From an uncultured archaeon (lineage in GTDB: Archaea; Asgardarchaeota; Thorarchaeia; Thorarchaeales; Thorarchaeaceae), in the NCBI GenBank assembly GCA_964473825.1, contig CAYYQL010000012.1:1561-65560 (forward strand): 64,000 nt of DNA. The letters are read 5' to 3'. The position numbers and the translations under genes were made by a program. The notes below the pieces were generated by a model, which had not been told where the DNA came from, did not search any database, and saw only the letters and a list, made by a program, of their open reading frames with translations. This document shows, piece after piece, positions 52,944-62,564 of the stretch (its first letter is position 1; each line of letters starts with the position of its first letter).

Positions 52944-54173
52944 TCAGAGCCATTCAAACGCTTTACGCCAGGTGCTGCTTGAAAGTGCAAAGGGACTCAG
53001 GTAAACCGTTTGAAAGAATCTTTTCAGTTCTCCTTCCGATTTTGCTCTCTCAAACGTCGGCAAAACATACCGGGTTCGGCCTATGAAGTAGTTGAAGATA
53101 TATGGTGCCCACAAGTTTGGTCGACCGTCGTCCCTCTTGGGCTTGACGAAGCCTAGTGATTCCTCCGCAGTTTCCCGAGAGAAGAGTCCTCTCTCTTGAA
53201 CGAACCAAACCACTTCATCGAATGGCCGCTCTTTGTGATTGAGCATGATTGCTGCATTGATGCTGACCATCCGTCTAAGGGTGTATAATGCATCTATGGC
53301 CTTCTTGCTAGGATTGTCAATCACAATTCCAAGGAAGTCTTTGGCTGTATCAGCTGTGCCCTCAGAAATGACACACCGTCCAGTGTGAAGTGGTACAATA
53401 CTCAGCTCAGTCAAATTGTTCTCCTTGTATGCCTTCTCACGCCAGAGATTAGATACGTGATGCTCATACTCATGGTATACAACACCCAGCAATCGGTCTC
53501 TGTTGAATGAACGGTCGATGTTGAAACAATTGATGGAACGATAGTCGCCCTGGTAATAGTTGTACCCACCCCAGGGCTCATTCTGAACTGTTTCATATCT
53601 GACTCCATTGTCAGTGACCACATCACCAATCTGCGAGAATACTCGAGTCTTGAACATATCCCCCACTTCCCGAGTCTTCTCTTGTAGCTCACCCATGATA
53701 AGATTGCCGAGCTCCTCTCCTCTGACACGGCCCTTCTCTGTGAACTGTCGCACCTTCTCCTTGAGGTCCTCTCCTGGATGATCTGCAAGAAGGTCCTGTA
53801 GAACATCAGTGGCATCACCGAGGTCCGAATCCGAGAAGCTTGCAATCTGAATACCGAAAAGTCCTTCCACTAAGTCTGCGTAAGATATGTTGTCGCCTGC
53901 GAGCCAGCTGATCAGGACCTGCATGGACTCTATCTCACCCAACATGTAATCGCGACGTAGCTCGTGGTCCAGCCCATCTCTGCAGCGGTCCAGAAGAACG
54001 CCCAGCTCGTGTACCAATTTACCAGAAGACTGACACTCATCTTGCAAGGCGGGTGCCAGTTCTTGGGGACCAAAATATGCGTCGACAATGCTATTCCCGG
54101 TGATTCGCTTTGAGTATTGCCCCACTTTCCCGCAGACTCTGACGAATTCTTCAGCCTCGTTCATAGCTACCAA
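52944..54173 (-). CDS. putative zinc metallopeptidase (HExxH)
   Basis: HEYEHH motif within about 400 aa of otherwise unassigned sequence. Family not determined. Confidence 0.4.
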   Translation of the reverse strand: MVAMNEAEEFVRVCGKVGQYSKRITGNSIVDAYFGPQELAPALQDECQSSGKLVHELGVLLDRCRDGLDHELRRDYMLGEIESMQVLISWLAGDNISYADLVEGLFGIQIASFSDSDLGDATDVLQDLLADHPGEDLKEKVRQFTEKGRVRGEELGNLIMGELQEKTREVGDMFKTRVFSQIGDVVTDNGVRYETVQNEPWGGYNYYQGDYRSINCFNIDRSFNRDRLLGVVYHEYEHHVSNLWREKAYKENNLTELSIVPLHTGRCVISEGTADTAKDFLGIVIDNPSKKAIDALYTLRRMVSINAAIMLNHKERPFDEVVWFVQERGLFSRETAEESLGFVKPKRDDGRPNLWAPYIFNYFIGRTRYVLPTFERAKSEGELKRFFQTVYLSPFALSSSTWRKAFEWL

Positions 54174-54291: not shown

Positions 54292-54642
54292 ATGCCGAAG
54301 AAGAAGTCGAGTAAGAAGGCCATAGGAGTAGCTCTTTTCATCATCATCGTAGCTGTAGGTATTGTCGCTTGGCAAGATGGATTGATTGGTGAAGCCAGCA
54401 TTGCTGATATTAATGCTGGAAACATAGACAACGGAACTGCTGTGACAATCAAGGGGAAGCTCATCTTCAGAGCGGGAAATCTCCACACGGTCAAGTCACT
54501 CAGTGGAGACAACTTCGTCATCTTCGAGTGGGCGGGAAGTTCTCCACCGCTTGATTCGATTGTTGTTGTAAGAGGCGTTGTCAGCTCCATAGGAACGCTA
54601 TCGGATGTCACATCAGTGGAAGTTGTGTGGGTCTTTCAGTAG
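54292..54642 (+). CDS. small N-terminally anchored protein (signal anchor plus beta-rich domain)
   Basis: MPKKKSSKKAIGVALFIIIVAVGIVAW: positive N-terminus then TM. Unknown function. Confidence 0.4.
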   Translation: MPKKKSSKKAIGVALFIIIVAVGIVAWQDGLIGEASIADINAGNIDNGTAVTIKGKLIFRAGNLHTVKSLSGDNFVIFEWAGSSPPLDSIVVVRGVVSSIGTLSDVTSVEVVWVFQ

Positions 54643-54653
54643 TGGACAACCGC

Positions 54654-55586
54654 TCAATCAGAACCGTCAACTCGGTAGACAGACGCGGTCTTCACAATGG
54701 CACGGAGCTGCTCGATACGGTCTAGGTCGGTACCCACCATACCATAGGTAGTAACGCCTAAGAATCGTTCTACTGTCAGTGGCGGCACCGCATCCCCCAA
54801 ATCCTGGTAATTCGCAATTGCAATGATGTGCTTTGGGAGATTCCTGAAGTGCGCCTCAAGAATTCCTTTCGCACGGGCCACTCCGGTCTTGTTGCTCTTC
54901 AGCACAATGATTCCCACATCTGCTCTCTTGAGATAGGAGGCCCACAATTTCCTGTAGTGAGTTGATCCGGGAAGGTCATAAATGGTCAGCAACTGGTTTG
55001 CGACCATGTACCACTCGTCGGATTCGTAAGGTGTCTTCTTCTCGAGAATCTCTTGAAGTTGACCTGCATTGGGGGCAGCAACTGCTCTCACTGATGGGCG
55101 ATACTCCAAAGTAATATCTCCTGAAGTGAGCATGGAGAAGAGGGAGCTCTTCCCGGACCCTGCCTCTCCAAACAAGACAAGCCTGACATAGTCGATGACT
55201 TGGTCGTTTATCCTGCGTGCAAGAAGCTTCCTTCGACTGGCCGAAATAGACTTGAGTGTTTTGCCATCAGTAGCGCTGACTACTTCTTTGGTCACTGAGA
55301 GTGCCTTATCTGTGACAGATTTTCTGCCTTCTGATTCATCGCCAACTACCATTATCACAAAGGGATTCCTTCGTGCTATCCCGAAACGCCTCAGCAACCC
55401 GTCAGGCCCCATTTGTTCGACGTAGTATACCCGAATGTTACCGGATTCGTAGTCTACGGCGGGTTCCATTGAGTGTGTCCTCTTTCCGACCTGCCGAATG
55501 GTATCCCAGTCAACAACCTGCGGTAAATACTCAAGTCTGAGTTTGATGCCGTAGTAGGTTGACATGACTAGGACTTCGACAATCAT
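54654..55586 (-). CDS. small Ras-superfamily GTPase with about 130-aa N-terminal extension domain
   Basis: G1 motif LVLFGEAGSGKSSL, G3 motif DLPGS, G4-like ANYQD. The N-terminal domain may be roadblock/longin-like; that is inferred, not seen. Confidence 0.65.
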   Translation of the reverse strand: MIVEVLVMSTYYGIKLRLEYLPQVVDWDTIRQVGKRTHSMEPAVDYESGNIRVYYVEQMGPDGLLRRFGIARRNPFVIMVVGDESEGRKSVTDKALSVTKEVVSATDGKTLKSISASRRKLLARRINDQVIDYVRLVLFGEAGSGKSSLFSMLTSGDITLEYRPSVRAVAAPNAGQLQEILEKKTPYESDEWYMVANQLLTIYDLPGSTHYRKLWASYLKRADVGIIVLKSNKTGVARAKGILEAHFRNLPKHIIAIANYQDLGDAVPPLTVERFLGVTTYGMVGTDLDRIEQLRAIVKTASVYRVDGSD

Positions 55587-55656
55587 GAAACGGCCTTCTT
55601 TGGATTTGATGGTTCCTGTCTAGGTCGGCCAGCAATATAATTCATTCTGGCTTGGT

Positions 55657-56412
55657 CTAGACAAGCAACTCGCTCCGCCCTAAAACGCGCTCAACGCCAT
55701 CTATTGCAACCAGATTGAATGTGGCATCGTTTCTCGTAAGGTCTATTCGTGTATAGACTTGAGTGGTTGCGCCGCGGATTCTTCGAGAGAGGAGAGTCCC
55801 GGTAGTATAGTGAACCATATCATTGAGGCGCCACATCCAGGGCACGTGTCGATGACCGTTGAGCACCAGAGAACACTTTGATACCTGAAGAGTTCCAAGC
55901 ACATCGCCTGCGTCCTCCACAACGTTGTGTTCTCGACCGGTATGCGGAACAGGCAACAGATGGTGATGCAAAGCAAGGATCTTGATTTTCTCCTTTGCTA
56001 GGCCGAAGAAATCACGTATCTGCATATAGTATGCCCGGCCAACGTGGCCTGCGTCATTATCGGGTTCAGAGCTATCAATAGCGAACAAAGCAACCTCTTC
56101 TGTTTCATGGCGAGTGAACCGCTCGCCGAAGAGCTCCTCGAAGTGAGCTGTCCCGTAGTTCCGCTCGTCGTGGTTCCCCGGCACAATGATCATGGGAACG
56201 TCGATACCGTCGACAGCCTCATGGAATGCTTCATACTCCTCCCTGAGCCCCTCAGAGGTCAGGTCGCCAGTGATCAGTAGAAGGGGGTTGGTCATGGCCT
56301 TCGACTTCTTCTCCACACCGTCCAAGATCCTCAGAAAGTCATCAATCTTGACCCCCTGTTCACCAATGTGCACGTCACTCATGTGGAAGATTGTCATGAT
56401 CAACTGGGGCAT
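55657..56412 (-). CDS. calcineurin-like metallophosphoesterase
   Basis: MSDVHIG, GDLT, GNHD and GHRH metal-ligand motifs in canonical order. Its ATG abuts the stop of the upstream membrane-protein gene with 0 nt spacing. Confidence 0.82.
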   Translation of the reverse strand: MPQLIMTIFHMSDVHIGEQGVKIDDFLRILDGVEKKSKAMTNPLLLITGDLTSEGLREEYEAFHEAVDGIDVPMIIVPGNHDERNYGTAHFEELFGERFTRHETEEVALFAIDSSEPDNDAGHVGRAYYMQIRDFFGLAKEKIKILALHHHLLPVPHTGREHNVVEDAGDVLGTLQVSKCSLVLNGHRHVPWMWRLNDMVHYTTGTLLSRRIRGATTQVYTRIDLTRNDATFNLVAIDGVERVLGRSELLV

Positions 56413-58587
56413 CTAGCGAAATCCTCCGCTTACACACGCAGAGTGACACGCAGAATGGCATGCGCTATGGCACACGCAAGCACTATGACATGCCGAGTGA
56501 CATGCCGAGTGGCACGCATCATGAGTGACACACGCTGAATGGCAAGCGTCATGTGATACGCAGCGACTTGTACCCTCAACGATTGGCTTCAGTGGCTCGC
56601 TGATAATGTTAGCTACGCCATTCATGACCTCACCGATAGTGCTAGTGACATTGGACATAATCTGGCCGGTTGTGGCAGCTATATCACCTACCACTCGACC
56701 CGCGCCGCTGATTGCATGACCTGTAGCATCAGCAACACCTCGGAACCACTCTGGAATATCTGGGGGAGAAATTGCACCGCCCGTATCCTTGAAGATGCCA
56801 CCGATTCGTGTGTCATGTCGTGGATGCATATACAACCAATACCAAGCCCAAGAATCATGATACCTTCTGTCGAAGTAATAGTCAGTCCGGCCATGGATCG
56901 TGGGGTTGGTCTCAAGCTCGTTCCAGGCCCCTTCAATCATCTCGTCATGATGCTCCTTGGTCGCCTCGAAGTCTGCATCCCATGATTTCTTCTGCACGTG
57001 TTCTCCAAGTTCGTCAATCATCTCATCGACCAGCTCTGGGTCCAACTCATTGTCCTTGATGGCCTCGAGGAACAGCTCCTCGTAGTAGGTCAGTTCCTCG
57101 AACTTGACGCCGGTCACCGAGAGCTTCAGTGGCTCAGAGGAAATTACTCGGACTGCTCCCTTCTTGACGCAGGACATGAGTATCATCGTGATAAGTTTCT
57201 GTCGGCTCGTGTTGAAGAAGAAAGCGGACTCGACAGGGTCTAGCTCTGCAACCGTCCCAGGGGTTCCATAGGTCTCAACTGCAATCTCTGGGCTCTCGTA
57301 GTCATAAGTGGTTTCATCCGCAGTCCACTTGGCCCCGTACGAGTATGTGACTTTCTTGTAGACGTAGTAGAGTATACCGAGCGCCATGATTCCTGATATA
57401 CCGATGATGAGGAGGTCAGGCGGTATCAGGGGTGGGATATACTCCCTTACGTAGACGTCGACTGTAAAGGTCCCGCCGACCGAACCCTCAGAGTTTTCTC
57501 CTGTAATAAGAAAGATGACTGTTAGAACCTCAGGAATGTTATCAGCCCTGAAAGTATAGGTTAGGTATTCGCTCTGACCACCCGCAAGATTCCCAATGTA
57601 TGTTTCGAGCGCTCCATAAATCAGAGTCATATTGTCAGGTAGTCCTAGAGTGACTTCAACATTGGACACTGCGCTATCACCGTAATTGAAGATAACTAGC
57701 TCGTATTCGAAATTGGTATCAGCATCCACATCTACATAGGTATCACCTACAACCCCAAGATCTCCCGGTTCTACATGGTCGGCATAGAACGACCAATTCG
57801 TGTACTGAAATACCTGCAACTTGTCATATGCATATGCGGGGTCAGCTGCTAGACTAACACTGAAGTTGCGGGGAGTTGTATCCTCGGCCGAAGGATATGC
57901 GAGAAGGTTGTTCTCATCGTATTCCCGAAGGGTTTCACCCGAGGAGAGGATGCCCTGTCGGTAGTCCTCCACGTACCCTGCATGAAGTGCACCTTCGGAA
58001 GTGATTCCACCTCCAGGTACTATCCACGCCTCATCCATCTCAATCGGATAGACTACCCGTACATTCTCATACAGCACATCGATACTCCATTGGACGGGCG
58101 CCCAGTTGAGAACACCGAAGTCGCCCGTGACAGGTTCTGAAGATCCCTCAAGAGTGTACTCTCCTGTAGTCTGTTCGATTATCCTATTCGTGCTGAAGTA
58201 TCCAAAGACTACTAGGACCTGTTCACCCTCAGGAGTACGGGGCACCCAATCCAGTTTGTAGCCTTGAGAGACCTTATCCACGATAAGGGAGTATCTTGAG
58301 CCACCCCATTCTACATAGGCACGGTTTGAGTCATATACACTGCTCTCTTGGATCCCGAATAGGTCGAATCCACCAAGCCCGCCACTCGCTGCCGTAAAAG
58401 TGATGAAATAAGTCACATTGATTCTGCCGTTCTGTAGGACGACAACATCAACATAGACGCTGTTGAGTGTCGGATCTGCTGCAAGATCTGCTGAACCACT
58501 GGCCGTATTGCAGGATGCAATCATCCCCACTATGAACAGACTGAGCAGACCTGCGACGTATCTTCTCTTCATTCGTTTCTCTCCCAT
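56413..58587 (-). CDS. single-pass membrane protein (DUF2207-like topology) with C-terminal (Cys-His-Ser-Ala)n repeat tail
   Basis: Signal peptide or lipobox-like N-terminus (LFIVGMIASC). About 390-aa ectodomain. Central TM helix LLIIGISGIMALGILYYVY. About 300-aa cytoplasmic part ending SHDACHSACVTHDACHSACHSACHSACVCHSACHSACHSACVSGGFR. Confidence 0.7.
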   Translation of the reverse strand: MGEKRMKRRYVAGLLSLFIVGMIASCNTASGSADLAADPTLNSVYVDVVVLQNGRINVTYFITFTAASGGLGGFDLFGIQESSVYDSNRAYVEWGGSRYSLIVDKVSQGYKLDWVPRTPEGEQVLVVFGYFSTNRIIEQTTGEYTLEGSSEPVTGDFGVLNWAPVQWSIDVLYENVRVVYPIEMDEAWIVPGGGITSEGALHAGYVEDYRQGILSSGETLREYDENNLLAYPSAEDTTPRNFSVSLAADPAYAYDKLQVFQYTNWSFYADHVEPGDLGVVGDTYVDVDADTNFEYELVIFNYGDSAVSNVEVTLGLPDNMTLIYGALETYIGNLAGGQSEYLTYTFRADNIPEVLTVIFLITGENSEGSVGGTFTVDVYVREYIPPLIPPDLLIIGISGIMALGILYYVYKKVTYSYGAKWTADETTYDYESPEIAVETYGTPGTVAELDPVESAFFFNTSRQKLITMILMSCVKKGAVRVISSEPLKLSVTGVKFEELTYYEELFLEAIKDNELDPELVDEMIDELGEHVQKKSWDADFEATKEHHDEMIEGAWNELETNPTIHGRTDYYFDRRYHDSWAWYWLYMHPRHDTRIGGIFKDTGGAISPPDIPEWFRGVADATGHAISGAGRVVGDIAATTGQIMSNVTSTIGEVMNGVANIISEPLKPIVEGTSRCVSHDACHSACVTHDACHSACHSACHSACVCHSACHSACHSACVSGGFR
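56416..56571 (-). repeat. tandem 12-nt repeat (gtgacatgccga-type) encoding (CHSA)n at the C-terminus
   Basis: Directly visible periodicity in the nucleotide sequence (...acatgccgagtgacatgccgagtggcacgc...). Encodes about ten C-H-S-A tetrapeptide units, some with V or D substitutions. Confidence 0.8.
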
Positions 58588-59236: not shown

Positions 59237-60658
59237 ATGCCTGTTTCAGAGTACCAGTACACCCTTGAGGACCTGAAATGGATACCCAGATTCATGGAAG
59301 AGGTAAGGGACTACTTCTTCTCTCGCCCGGAAGACAACCTTCTGATTCTGAGGCCCAACAAGGTGATGCATCTGAACAGGACAGGGATGCTCATGCTGAA
59401 GATGCTTCTTGAAGGCGAGAGTCCAGAGAGCGTTGTGGACTATTTTACGGAGAATCATGGCGCTGACAAGCAGCAGGTTCTCAATGACCTGGCTGCATTT
59501 GTGGACGATCTACAGAATATGGTGAGCGGAAACCAGAATGTCTACACTTATCGCACAGCAAAGATTGTTCCCTTCGGTACAGGCGAAATCAAGTATCCGG
59601 TACTCAGCGAGATAGCAGTGACTTACCGCTGCAATAACAAGTGCAGGTTCTGCTATGCATATTCCCCCTTTCGAGAATCAGACGAGATGACTACCGAAGA
59701 AGTCAAACGTGTCATAGACATCATAGCCGATGATGCTCATGTCCCATCTCTCTCTTTCACAGGCGGAGAGCCCACACTCAGAAACGACCTATTTGAGCTG
59801 ATTAAGCACGGTAGAGAGAAGGGGCTCCGTGTCAATCTGATAACAAATGGACGGCGCTGTGCAGACAAAGCGTTCGTTGCAAGACTCGTCGAGGCAGGTC
59901 TGAACAGCTCACAAGTGTCCATAGAAGGTGCTGACGCTGAAACTCACGACTTCATCGTTGGCGTCCCAGGCGCCTTTGAACAGACGGTAGAGGGTATCAA
60001 GAACCTTCGCAAGACCGACATCTACACTCACTGCAACACAACAATCTGCAGACCTAATGTAGAGAATCTTGAGGAGCTAGTAGACTTCCACGCTGATGAG
60101 CTGGGACTGACCTATTTCAGCATGAATATGGTGATCTATACCGGGACAGCGGCGAAGCTGAGAGATGAGCTTCAAATCAAGTACACCGAGATTGGAGACA
60201 TTGTCCGAAGAGTGAAGAAGAGAGCCAGCAAGAAAGGAGTTCAGTTCGTCTGGTATGCTCCTACACCTGTGTGTATCTTCAATCCCATTGCTCATGGACT
60301 GGGAGCAAAGAGCTGCGCCTGTTGTGATGGTCTTCTCTCAGTCGATGCAGAGGGGAAACTCCTGCCATGCTCCAGCTTCAGCGAGCCGGTCGGAGACCTT
60401 CTTCACGACGGGTTTGAGAAGGTCTGGTACAATCGAGCTTCCAGGTTCTGGAGAGCAAAGGACTATGCGCCTGAGGGCTGTAAGGCTTGTGAATACTTCA
60501 ACTATTGCTTCGGAGGATGTCCACTCTACTGGGATGTGCACGGGTTCGAGGAGATAGAAGACTTCTGGCCGGAGAAGAGCAGGGTGGCATCCAAGATGGA
60601 CGAGATCAGACTCAATCTGAGAAGACGAATAAGAGGCGATCAGCATGGAATCACCTAG
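59237..60658 (+). CDS. radical SAM/SPASM-domain enzyme with N-terminal PqqD-like RiPP-recognition domain
   Basis: N-terminal 100 aa (LILRPNKVMHLNRTGMLMLKMLLEGESPESVVDYF...VLNDLAAFVDDLQNM) reads as PqqD/RRE. CNNKCRFC is the CxxxCxxC AdoMet cluster. The C-terminus carries 8 Cys in SPASM spacing (CIFNP...CACCDG...LPCSS...GCKACEYFNYCFGGC). Confidence 0.85.
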   Translation: MPVSEYQYTLEDLKWIPRFMEEVRDYFFSRPEDNLLILRPNKVMHLNRTGMLMLKMLLEGESPESVVDYFTENHGADKQQVLNDLAAFVDDLQNMVSGNQNVYTYRTAKIVPFGTGEIKYPVLSEIAVTYRCNNKCRFCYAYSPFRESDEMTTEEVKRVIDIIADDAHVPSLSFTGGEPTLRNDLFELIKHGREKGLRVNLITNGRRCADKAFVARLVEAGLNSSQVSIEGADAETHDFIVGVPGAFEQTVEGIKNLRKTDIYTHCNTTICRPNVENLEELVDFHADELGLTYFSMNMVIYTGTAAKLRDELQIKYTEIGDIVRRVKKRASKKGVQFVWYAPTPVCIFNPIAHGLGAKSCACCDGLLSVDAEGKLLPCSSFSEPVGDLLHDGFEKVWYNRASRFWRAKDYAPEGCKACEYFNYCFGGCPLYWDVHGFEEIEDFWPEKSRVASKMDEIRLNLRRRIRGDQHGIT

Positions 60659-60705: not shown

Positions 60706-61857
60706 ATGCTAATTGACGACCTGAAGACTCCTGCCCTTCTTCTTGACAGAACTCGACTTGAGAAGAATATTGATCGAATGGCCAAGAAAGCAGAGGATAA
60801 TGGTGTTCACCTCCGACCACATATTAAGACCCACAAGTGCTTGGAGATTGCAGGTCTCCAGCGCTCATCAGGGGCTTGTGGTATTACTGTGTCAACAGTG
60901 TGGGAGGCCAAAGGTTTTGCTGATTCTGGCTTCGAGGATATCACGCTTGCTGTGCCAATTGTCATGGACAAAGTAGAAAGTGTCGTGAATCTTGCCAGAG
61001 ATGTCAACATGACTGTACTGGTCGATAGCCACAGACCAGTCGAGTGGCTCACAAAAGAATCCGCAGAGCAAGAAGTCCAGGTTGGAGTTCTCATCAAAGT
61101 AGACTGTGGTTATCACCGTTGTGGAGTCGACCCCGACAGCAGCGACCCAGTTAAGTTGGCTCGGAAGATAGAGGAAGCAAGATGGCTGGGCTTCAGAGGA
61201 ATCCTGACGCACGCCGGCCATGTCTACGAAGCGTCCAGCGTCGAAGAGATCAGAGCAGTCGCAAGGGAGGAACAGCTTGTTATGTGCAAGGTTGCGGAGA
61301 AGCTAAGAAAGGTCAATCTTCAACCGGACGTTGTCAGCATCGGATCCACCCCTACAATGTCGCTCACACCCAACATAGAGGACTGCATTACCGAGATACG
61401 GCCGGGCAACTACGTCCTCCATGATTACGATCAGGTGGCTCTTGGTTCTTGCACGTTCAGCGATTGTGCTCTGACAGTGCTTGCAAGTGTGATAGGCAAC
61501 TACGGGGATCGGATTGTGGTTGATGCAGGTGCAACAGCACTTTCCAAGGATTTGGGGCGGATACACGTTGATCCCCTAAGTGGATACGGACGAGTATTTC
61601 CCAGTGGAGATATCCAAGAACCAACGGGTGACCGCATCGTATCACTCTCACAGGAGCATGCAAAGATACAGCTGGTGGATGGTTCGCCGCTTAGAGACCT
61701 AGAGCCCGGCGAGAGGATACACATCTTGCCTAATCATTCATGTCTGACTGCGAATCTATTCGATTGGTACGCCGTCCATGACGGAACAGATAGCGTCTGT
61801 TGCAAGTGGAAGATATTGCGTGAACGCGACAGAGCGATGGTCACTGGAACCGACTAA
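60706..61857 (+). CDS. PLP-dependent DSD1-family enzyme (D-serine dehydratase / D-threonine aldolase-like, alanine racemase N-terminal fold)
   Basis: LRPHIKTHKC is the conserved PLP-Lys block of the DSD1/D-TA family. Length about 380 aa. Confidence 0.65.
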   Translation: MLIDDLKTPALLLDRTRLEKNIDRMAKKAEDNGVHLRPHIKTHKCLEIAGLQRSSGACGITVSTVWEAKGFADSGFEDITLAVPIVMDKVESVVNLARDVNMTVLVDSHRPVEWLTKESAEQEVQVGVLIKVDCGYHRCGVDPDSSDPVKLARKIEEARWLGFRGILTHAGHVYEASSVEEIRAVAREEQLVMCKVAEKLRKVNLQPDVVSIGSTPTMSLTPNIEDCITEIRPGNYVLHDYDQVALGSCTFSDCALTVLASVIGNYGDRIVVDAGATALSKDLGRIHVDPLSGYGRVFPSGDIQEPTGDRIVSLSQEHAKIQLVDGSPLRDLEPGERIHILPNHSCLTANLFDWYAVHDGTDSVCCKWKILRERDRAMVTGTD

Positions 61858-62564
61858 TCAACACGGTTGACAATGAAGTGACCACAGTAGGGACAGTTCT
61901 CTTCTTCGCCTGGTAGTATCGGATTCTTGAGTTTTCCACCGCAGTTAGGACACTTTGTGATGGCCTTGGGCAGTTGTTCCACAGCCTCAGCAGTATAGAC
62001 AACACGGGAGTCCATGTCTACGGTACCGCGAAATCTTCCCATCTTCGACAAAACACTCATTGCCTCGATAATCTGCTCGTCCGTAGAGTTCGTCACTCTT
62101 GCAATCTGGTCGAAAGACATCCTTCTCTGGGCATGAAGAAGATGCAGCAGACTCTCTTCCAGACTAACAGCACTGGGACTTACGATTTCACTCTTTGCAC
62201 GGTCAAGGTAGACCAGAGGAAGCCTACGATGAGCCAGGCGGTCTGCGGCATCAGCAACGTCCTCAGTTGAAACTCCGAGTTCTCTTGCCGCAGCGTCAAC
62301 CCCAACCCGTCCCTCTCTCTGAACAAGGGGGATCAGGCTACCCGAAATATCTTTGACACGCGCCTCTCGTGACCCTCGAATAATCAGGTAGAGCCCTATC
62401 ACTAGCTCGGGGAGACCCAAAATGGCCCAAGCGATGACACCAGATGCAAGAACAACCATTGGCTCTCCAGTGACCATGAGTGTACTCTGATACACTACAA
62501 GTGTCATGGCCGCGCATACGACCAGTGAAATCAAACCGATAAGCTGTGACAGACGTGGATTCAA
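61854..62564 (-). CDS. membrane protein with two N-terminal TM helices, helix-turn-helix-like middle and C-terminal zinc ribbon
   Basis: TM1/TM2 in the first 70 aa. ELGVSTEDVADAADRL and QIARVTNSTDEQIIEAM look HTH-like. C-terminal CPNCGG...CPYCGH ribbon. Confidence 0.5.
   Translation of the reverse strand: MNPRLSQLIGLISLVVCAAMTLVVYQSTLMVTGEPMVVLASGVIAWAILGLPELVIGLYLIIRGSREARVKDISGSLIPLVQREGRVGVDAAARELGVSTEDVADAADRLAHRRLPLVYLDRAKSEIVSPSAVSLEESLLHLLHAQRRMSFDQIARVTNSTDEQIIEAMSVLSKMGRFRGTVDMDSRVVYTAEAVEQLPKAITKCPNCGGKLKNPILPGEEENCPYCGHFIVNRVD

Follow-up and report, generated by a model that had tools for sequence, protein, structure and literature searches.

We analysed a cluster of adjacent genes in a 64,000-nt stretch of a Thorarchaeia contig (CAYYQL010000012.1, assembly GCA_964473825.1; hereafter the window), at the centre of which stand a 724-aa membrane protein (MEM) ending in a Cys/His repeat and a radical S-adenosylmethionine (radical-SAM)/SPASM enzyme (rSAM) encoded close by. 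MEM is encoded on the minus strand (58587-56413, stop TAG 56415-56413), and its 49 C-terminal residues (56562-56416), predicted to be cytoplasmic, constitute the repeat tail. It is followed on the same strand by a 251-aa metallophosphoesterase (MPE, 56412-55657, ATG 56412-56410) and a 310-aa GTPase (55586-54654), with 0 nt between the MEM stop and the MPE start and a spacer of 70 nt (55656-55587) between MPE and GTPase; the layout given in an earlier note on this DNA, namely a repeat-tailed membrane protein whose stop abuts the phosphoesterase ATG and a GTPase 70 bp further on the same strand, is thus accurate. Directly upstream of MEM lies a 131-aa open reading frame (p131, 59114-58719, minus strand), and divergent from p131-MEM lies rSAM (59237-60658, plus strand, 473 aa). 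The earlier note read MEM, MPE and GTPase as a signalling or polarity module, to which rSAM and p131 might also belong. By contrast, we propose, at a probability of roughly 0.7, that the conserved unit is MEM with its Cys/His tail plus rSAM, joined by p131, that MPE and GTPase are optional and lineage-restricted, and that the tail is probably modified.

The tail in the window reads CVSHDACHSACVTHDACHSACHSACHSACVCHSACHSACHSACVSGGFR and contains 11 Cys and 9 His in 49 residues; the pattern TGYCAYWSNGCNTGYCAY occurs four times in it, versus no occurrence in 100 shuffles of the window (DNA-pattern scan). A genome scan with the MEM alignment collected 47 species-level loci, all from Thorarchaeota (Asgard archaea), over which MEM is 50-95% identical, with 50-62% for the body in most of them. 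These loci, together with the source names given for homologues, mark the host as a member of the Thorarchaeota. In the 44 loci with a readable C-terminus the tail was found almost invariant, with the 49-aa consensus CVSHDACHSACV[ST]HDACHSACHSACHSACVCHSACHSACHSACVSGG[FY]R, and the variation comprised no more than an S/T alternation at two sites, a single S-to-A replacement seen in two loci, and the residue preceding the final Arg. At the DNA level 16-40 of 141 nucleotides differ, yet only 0-2 of 47 amino acids change, as exemplified by the window and locus L004, which differ at 40 of 141 nucleotides (28%) versus 2 of 47 residues. Because of this disproportion, the comparison of sequences indicates that strong purifying selection acts on every residue of the repeat, and a tail so nearly invariant over diverged DNA rules out low-complexity drift as the origin of the tail. 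Overlapping CX3CH strings are present in the tail, and two CVxHD (CX3D) strings occur in its Thorarchaeota version.

To follow the neighbourhood, the window proteins were placed on the Thorarchaeota loci by tblastn, and only loci extending far enough were counted (41, 39 or 34, depending on the gene). In 40 of 41 loci rSAM divergently adjoins p131-MEM, and p131 lies upstream of MEM on the same strand, also in 40 of 41, at 59-95% identity; no gene of the block is better conserved than rSAM (72-96% identity across Thorarchaeota). The suggestion that the adjacent rSAM and 131-aa frame may share a unit with MEM is therefore strongly borne out, as these genes form the conserved core. MPE follows MEM in 23 of 39 loci, within 3-4 nt in 20 of them, and just 3 of 34 species loci contain the GTPase. 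In 21 MPE-positive loci the gap between MPE and the next conserved gene measures only 34-84 nt, too short to conceal a GTPase gene. Hence the MEM-MPE-GTPase order does recur, in the few relatives that bear the GTPase, but it is not kept across the group, and the signalling or polarity module did not hold up as a conserved unit. The synteny in most Thorarchaeota loci spans from a D-Ser dehydratase-like gene through p116, p409 and an M29 peptidase gene to a DUF6159 gene, and because the whole neighbourhood is collinear, adjacency among Thorarchaeota is weak functional evidence.

Evidence from outside Thorarchaeota was gathered from the tail side, i.e. from loci found via the tail motif. When homologues of MEM were sought by a word-based search, every protein retrieved was truncated and lacked the tail. 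A search with the tail alone found, outside Thorarchaeota, short protein fragments ending ...ACHSACHSACVSGG..; on two of the fragment contigs the next gene overlaps the stop and encodes a 38-43% identical rSAM homologue, N-terminal domain included, and further short CHxxC-tailed proteins on other contigs also lie beside rSAM genes. Metagenomes were then scanned with the DNA pattern of a single motif, ACHDACHSAC, which is absent from the Thorarchaeota tail and hence provides an independent test; at least 120 stretches matched, of which 80 were retrieved. The carriers are proteins of ~500-705 aa ending (ACH[SD])n-ACVSGGx[HR], with 7-11 CHxxC units and 9-12 Cys, and their distant homology to MEM (20-35% identity) extends over ectodomain and cytoplasmic domain alike. 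Among the 68 loci with at least 600 nt beyond the tail, a homologue of the window's rSAM follows on the same strand in 67, with a median start at -9 nt relative to the stop codon of the tail. The rSAM homologues are full-length and mostly 39-48% identical, with alignments starting from query residues 9-15 and so including the N-terminal domain. Judged from the flanking genes of a handful of loci, which encode bacterial DNA polymerase III alpha, GyrA, prepilin/DUF1559 and Cu_amine_oxidN1 proteins, the metagenome loci are bacterial, and in a rough, quickly built neighbour-joining tree the Thorarchaeota rSAMs form a single clade amid the bacterial ones. Homologues of p131 (37-41% identity) are located upstream of MEM in seven bacterial loci, while the 80 bacterial loci contain no recurrent MPE or GTPase family. 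The tail and the rSAM clade thus co-occur almost without exception, across two domains of life and in two gene orientations, and the pairing of tail-bearing MEM with rSAM is the part of our proposal that we hold with high confidence.

Some further features of these relatives were recorded. In 41 bacterial loci rSAM is followed by a third protein of ~330 aa (e.g. L066:7831-8835, minus strand; L073:4952-5977, plus strand; L120:6242-7147, minus strand), which is probably membrane-embedded, matches no Pfam or NCBIfam family and has no homologue in the window or the Thorarchaeota loci. A T4-like phage contig (L059:535-3541, JGI Ga0643515_0008805, with Portal_T4 and GPW_gp25 genes) encodes a 122-aa protein ending CHSQCHSACHSDCNCHSAC, directly followed by two radical-SAM-like genes, so that by sequence likeness Cys-His repeat targets with rSAM partners occur in phages too. 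The tail of locus L091 (Ga0316616_100036881) is interrupted by CAC (…ACHDACACHSACHSACVSSCAGSF), resembling the CVC interruption of the Thorarchaeota tail, and its rSAM is a weak sister of the Thorarchaeota clade in the rough tree.

The enzyme itself matches three Pfam domains, PqqD at residues 37-93 (35.7 bits, cut-off 23.4), Radical_SAM at residues 128-284 (98.3 bits, cut-off 29.5) and SPASM at residues 363-419 (22.1 bits, cut-off 21.5), the last of which scores 36.5 bits in a bacterial homologue. It carries the cluster motif CNNKCRFC (CX3CX2C, residues 132-139) and the auxiliary-cluster motif CKACEYFNYCFGGC (CX2CX5CX3C). By these matches, the PqqD-like N-terminal domain is of the peptide-recognition (RRE) type, and the domain set is that of peptide-modifying radical-SAM enzymes, with PqqE and SkfB among the closest solved relatives. 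In NCBIfam rSAM falls below the cut-off of every model; the best scores were obtained with AhbD (155 bits) and NirJ2 (148 bits), both with cut-offs of 500. For the ACGX maturase 102 bits were determined (cut-off 400), and the CXXX maturase (TIGR04115) is outside the 25 best-scoring families. Radical-SAM/SPASM enzymes with recognition domains are mainly known as maturases of short secreted peptides, whereas here the enzyme would likely act on the cytoplasmic end of a membrane protein of 500-750 aa.

MEM was predicted from hydropathy to comprise an N-terminal signal or anchor (~residues 11-29), an ectodomain, a transmembrane helix (~residues 391-413) and a cytoplasmic domain; a Lys pair (KK) directly C-terminal to the helix, together with the hydropathy, backs a cytoplasmic C-terminus, so MEM is predicted to be a single-pass membrane protein with its tail inside the cell. 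Within the ectodomain a weak Pfam match to a DUF11/CARDB-like immunoglobulin-type domain was found at residues 287-350. Pfam and NCBIfam searches with the window's MEM gave no family assignment, and a PDB sequence search with the MEM profile gave no match. Nevertheless, the DUF2207 N-terminal domain (PF09972) was matched by 19 of 47 aligned members of the MEM family (best E 4.8e-8), though not by the window's MEM at E ≤ 10. MEM shares with DUF2207 proteins such as Streptococcus mutans SMU.243 (PMC10457818) the succession of signal, ectodomain, transmembrane helix and cytoplasmic low-complexity C-terminus; it differs in that its locus lacks the LemA partner described for DUF2207 (PMC12631010), and in its Cys/His tail and rSAM partner, which are undescribed for DUF2207. 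The single functional study of the family is that of SMU.243 (PMC10457818), and a literature search on DUF2207 together with radical SAM found no paper. DUF2207 proteins are common and yet functionally obscure. Database copies of MEM (P0010-P0016) mostly end just before the tail or shift frame there, and L021 (JBHLRC010000156.1) has a frame problem as well. The repetitive DNA encoding the tail seems, on this evidence, to interfere with assembly or gene calling, which may explain the absence of the tail from family curation.

Two groups of known systems offer points of comparison. The Cxxx-repeat targets (TIGR04117; PF27846, 'tSAM_targ_Cxxx_rpt') and the ACGX-repeat system (rSAM TIGR04340), the nearest kinds described so far, likewise have a period-4 C-terminal Cys repeat encoded beside a radical-SAM/SPASM enzyme, but their carrier is a short peptide rather than a membrane protein of 500-750 aa, and the MEM repeat, of the form A-C-H-S/D, always contains the His and always closes with ACVSGG. 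The tail in the window gave no match to the TIGR04117 and PF27846 models at E ≤ 10, and the tail fragments P0017 and P0018 reached 14-16 bits against TIGR04117 (cut-off 50), P0017 also matching PF27846 weakly. To our knowledge both repeat systems have been defined only in silico, and a literature search on them found no relevant paper. The second group consists of the sacti/ranthipeptide and protein-cross-linking enzymes SkfB, PapB and QhpD, to which rSAM is similar in combining an RRE/PqqD domain, a radical-SAM core and SPASM, and to whose systems the locus is similar in its candidate substrate, the Cys-rich and repetitive MEM tail with its two CX3D strings. PapB acts on the CX3D motifs of freyrasin, and QhpD on QhpC. 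The differences are that rSAM scores only 90 bits for PapB (cut-off 340) and 107 bits for StsB (cut-off 625) in NCBIfam, and that the MEM locus has neither the leader/core peptide architecture nor a conserved protease or exporter.

On this basis we propose the following model. The core would be a DUF2207-like single-pass MEM with an (A-C-H-S/D)n ... ACVSGGxx tail and a dedicated rSAM with a PqqD-type domain, joined by p131 in Thorarchaeota and some bacteria. Most likely, rSAM would bind to MEM's C-terminal region inside the cell and covalently modify the repeat; access of the enzyme to the tail is plausible, as enzymes of this type act in the cytoplasm and the tail is predicted to lie there. 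We infer that the MEM tail is the rSAM substrate, and its covalent modification appears somewhat probable. By analogy with SkfB, PapB and QhpD, the leading guess for the chemistry would be Cys-derived cross-links of the sacti/ranthipeptide kind, and a membrane-anchored protein may thereby gain a tail that is rigid and probably binds metal or is redox-active. The most specific form of the model, that rSAM installs a ladder of Cys-based and possibly Cys-His cross-links in the (ACHS)n tail of a DUF2207-type protein and thereby represents an undescribed maturation system, present at every Thorarchaeota species locus examined and widespread among bacteria, we would put at even odds. No publication or curated family covering the tail-MEM/rSAM system was found by literature and family-database searches, nor does any component other than the enzyme (MEM, p131 and the third protein of bacteria) belong to a curated Pfam or NCBIfam family. 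If the model is true, it would provide the first enzymatic partner for DUF2207-type proteins and extend the chemistry of ribosomally synthesized and post-translationally modified peptides (RiPPs) to the C-terminus of a large membrane protein. MPE and the longin-Arf-like GTPase would be genes added in Thorarchaeota, outside this core.

Several observations count against the proposal. The top NCBIfam scores of rSAM, all far below cut-off, are for tetrapyrrole enzymes and not for peptide maturases; the metagenome scan, with its at least 120 matching stretches, used one motif; the collinear neighbourhood of Thorarchaeota leaves adjacency there with little weight of its own. Within Thorarchaeota rSAM is divergently transcribed, and an insertion of ~5 kb separates it from p131 in L004 and L006. 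On the side of the optional genes, MPE abuts the MEM stop in 20 loci, so that a genuine link between the two, specific to the lineage, may exist, and the GTPase family was seen nowhere but at this locus, where in 7 of 8 lineages it comes immediately after MPE, which leaves room for a local functional tie.

The tetrapyrrole scores also bear on a different account of the tail, in which it is an unmodified metal-binding or storage module (a Cu, Zn, Ni or Fe-S/haem-like site) and rSAM supplies or processes the cofactor. AhbD and NirJ2 act on tetrapyrroles, and the 11 Cys and 9 His of the tail recur with a period of 4, so that a helix would present stripes of Cys, His, Ala and Ser, as inferred from the sequence; the overlapping CX3CH strings agree with such a site too. 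However, the AhbD and NirJ2 scores stay far below the cut-offs of 500, rSAM has a PqqD-type recognition domain and a full SPASM domain like peptide maturases, and the near-invariance of the repeat extends to Ala and Ser, which suits enzyme recognition at least equally well. As for haem, c-type attachment occurs outside the cytoplasm, and haem c attachment via CX3CH was rejected for a tail predicted to be inside. We consider this account unlikely, and it is partly compatible with a modified tail, which could bind metal after its modification.

Equally unlikely in our estimate is that MEM, as a sensor, MPE and the longin-GTPase are transcribed together and make up a signalling or polarity module, be it only in the Thorarchaeota sub-clade of the window. 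The three genes share a strand, with spacings of 0 and 70 nt and no T-run terminator in the spacer; the GTPase follows MPE in the window and in L003, L183, L004, L006, L184 and L032 (it occurs without MPE in L045); its family, which comprised only 8 clusters (E<1e-30) in an exhaustive profile search of 1.84 billion representative proteins, was unseen elsewhere; and its longin-like domain is real, longin and roadblock domains being known regulators of GTPases (PMC10933270). Against this, the GTPase is missing from 31 of 34 loci and MPE from 16 of 39, while MEM, p131 and rSAM persist, and neither is present in the bacterial loci. On the rough rSAM tree the loci with the GTPase group in a single clade, L032 excepted, which is consistent with an insertion, specific to a lineage, within a stretch of collinear genes. 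The conserved TATA-like box of the spacer points to a promoter of its own for the GTPase gene, and no separate MglB-like gene for a GTPase-activating protein or guanine-nucleotide exchange factor was found at the locus among the window's reading frames and by Pfam. For Asgard biology, the tempting 'polarity module' thus loses support. That there is no functional unit at all, the adjacency being gene order inherited among close Thorarchaeota, accords with the synteny described above but is very improbable, since for the MEM-rSAM pair pure collinearity is contradicted by the 67 of 68 loci of unrelated bacteria, with other flanks and the other orientation; for the GTPase, and partly for MPE, inherited order is a possible explanation.

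Apart from its place in the gene cluster, the GTPase has properties of its own. Its N-terminal domain (residues 1-131, 55586-55194, minus strand) has a predicted longin-like fold, and its Arf/Rag-like GTPase domain (residues 132-310, 55193-54654, minus strand) contains G1 GEAGSGKS (residues 140-147), G3 DLPGS (204-208, no Gln) and G4 NYQD (259-262), as well as an insert of ~35 residues between switch I and G3. Across nine homologues GEAGSGKS and DLPG are invariant, and all have G3 DLPG[ST] and G4 NYQD and lack the catalytic Gln and the canonical NKxD; the unusual G3 and G4 motifs pointed out before are therefore constant features, save for the [ST] in G3. The extension had been put at about 130 aa, in agreement with the ~131 residues preceding the P-loop domain, which begins at ~residue 133. 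In Pfam the protein exceeds the gathering cut-offs of Roc (28.6 bits) and Arf (27.5 bits). In contrast to Arf proper, it has no N-terminal amphipathic helix or Gly2 and starts with MIVEV..., which is beta-strand 1 of the folded domain. The next-nearest relatives outside its 8 clusters are 'ADP-ribosylation factor-like' proteins of Odin-, Baldr- and Thorarchaeota, also with N-terminal extensions.

Structures were predicted by AlphaFold2 (AF2) from shallow alignments of 7-9 sequences and compared with the PDB by Foldseek. The full-length model has a predicted local distance difference test score (pLDDT) of 66, poor in the switch regions, with residues 1-130 confident; Arl1, Arl6, Arf1 and the Asgard GerdArfR1 rank at the top for it, Rab proteins match as well, and the GTPase core dominates these matches. 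Modelled alone, residues 1-131 reached a pLDDT of 90.4 and a predicted TM-score (pTM) of 0.86. The order of the elements is b-b-a-(b)-b-b-b-a-a, i.e. the longin order with no N-terminal helix (DSSP: E2-9, E14-19, H27-39, (E44-46), E51-59, E65-73, E76-82, H88-106, H116-130). Adaptor protein (AP) sigma subunits, the VAMP7 longin, zeta-COP, Sec22b, SRX and TRAPP proteins rank first, and LAMTOR, MglB and profilin rank below the longin proteins; the matches are modest, with E-values of 4e-4 to 1e-2 and TM-scores of 0.5-0.65. Residues 1-131 have no Pfam match, thus no sequence match to a longin family. The guess of a roadblock- or longin-like N-terminus is hence substantiated on the longin rather than the roadblock side. 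A small GTPase with a roadblock/longin-type domain recalls MglA/MglB, from which it differs in that the domain is fused in cis and has the longin order rather than the a-b-b-a-b-b-b of the MglB roadblock; MglB (1j3w) ranks 47th in the Foldseek search with the N-terminal domain. Fusions of longin or roadblock domains with GTPases have already been described in Asgard archaea (Tran et al. 2024, PMC10933270; GerdArfR1, PDB 8oum), and the window protein resembles them in its longin-like domain fused to an Arf/Rag-like core and its Asgard host. It differs in its DLPG[ST] and NYQD motifs, its ~35-residue insert and its sub-family of 8 clusters, and so adds to the Asgard set one longin-Arf-like sub-family with unusual G3 and G4.

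The GTPase gene evolves fast, is confined to a small number of Thorarchaeota lineages and is probably driven by a promoter of its own. A box, TGAATTATATTG, in the MPE-GTPase spacer (55644-55633, minus strand) is shared by the window and L003, although the spacer sequence on either side of it has diverged; it is possibly an archaeal TATA-like promoter element of the GTPase gene.

MPE matches Pfam Metallophos (E 1.9e-13, 51.7 bits, cut-off 21.5) and has all five metallophosphoesterase metal motifs, D13-x-H15 (DVH), G49-D50, G79-N-H-D82, H149-H151 (HHH) and G186-H-x-H189 (GHRH), as do the class III phosphodiesterases GpdQ and CpdA. By these matches it is assigned as a calcineurin-like metallophosphoesterase of the GpdQ/CpdA type. 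The glycerophosphodiesterase GpdQ (2zo9/2dxl) is the closest solved structure (E 4e-7), and the NCBIfam match to the cAMP phosphodiesterase CpdA is weak (36.5 bits, far below the equivalog cut-off of 225). We regard MPE as a Thorarchaeota-only accessory gene that has been repeatedly lost or gained.

The p131 protein has no match in Pfam, NCBIfam, PADLOC or the PDB (the last including a profile search). It was considered as the rSAM substrate and rejected, as it has a single Cys in 131 aa and is absent from most bacterial loci. PADLOC on the locus proteins returned generic rSAM, MPE and P-loop matches with no assignment to a defence system. Three loci contain an additional 108-aa reading frame between p131 and MEM (L004:6426-6752, L006:5642-5968, L184:4571-4897) with a weak DNA_alkylation/HEAT-like match, and the L004 insertion between rSAM and p131 includes a toxin-antitoxin pair.

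Beyond the block, p116 (54292-54642, plus strand) encodes a small protein with an N-terminal hydrophobic anchor and a faint hint of an OB-fold that could be assigned to no Pfam or NCBIfam family; p116 and the GTPase gene converge, their ends only 11 nt apart, and the position of p116 is kept in most, not all, Thorarchaeota loci. A 236-aa protein encoded at 61854-62564 (minus strand) has two N-terminal hydrophobic segments, weak helix-turn-helix matches (PafC/AsnC type) and a C-terminal zinc ribbon, and may be a membrane-tethered transcription regulator. The 409-aa p409 (52944-54173, minus strand), with no Pfam or NCBIfam match, is in Thorarchaeota always situated just downstream of MEM, MPE and GTPase, and carries at residues 234-239 an HEYEHH motif (HExxH, zinc-peptidase-like) that is kept in 42 of 43 Thorarchaeota orthologues.

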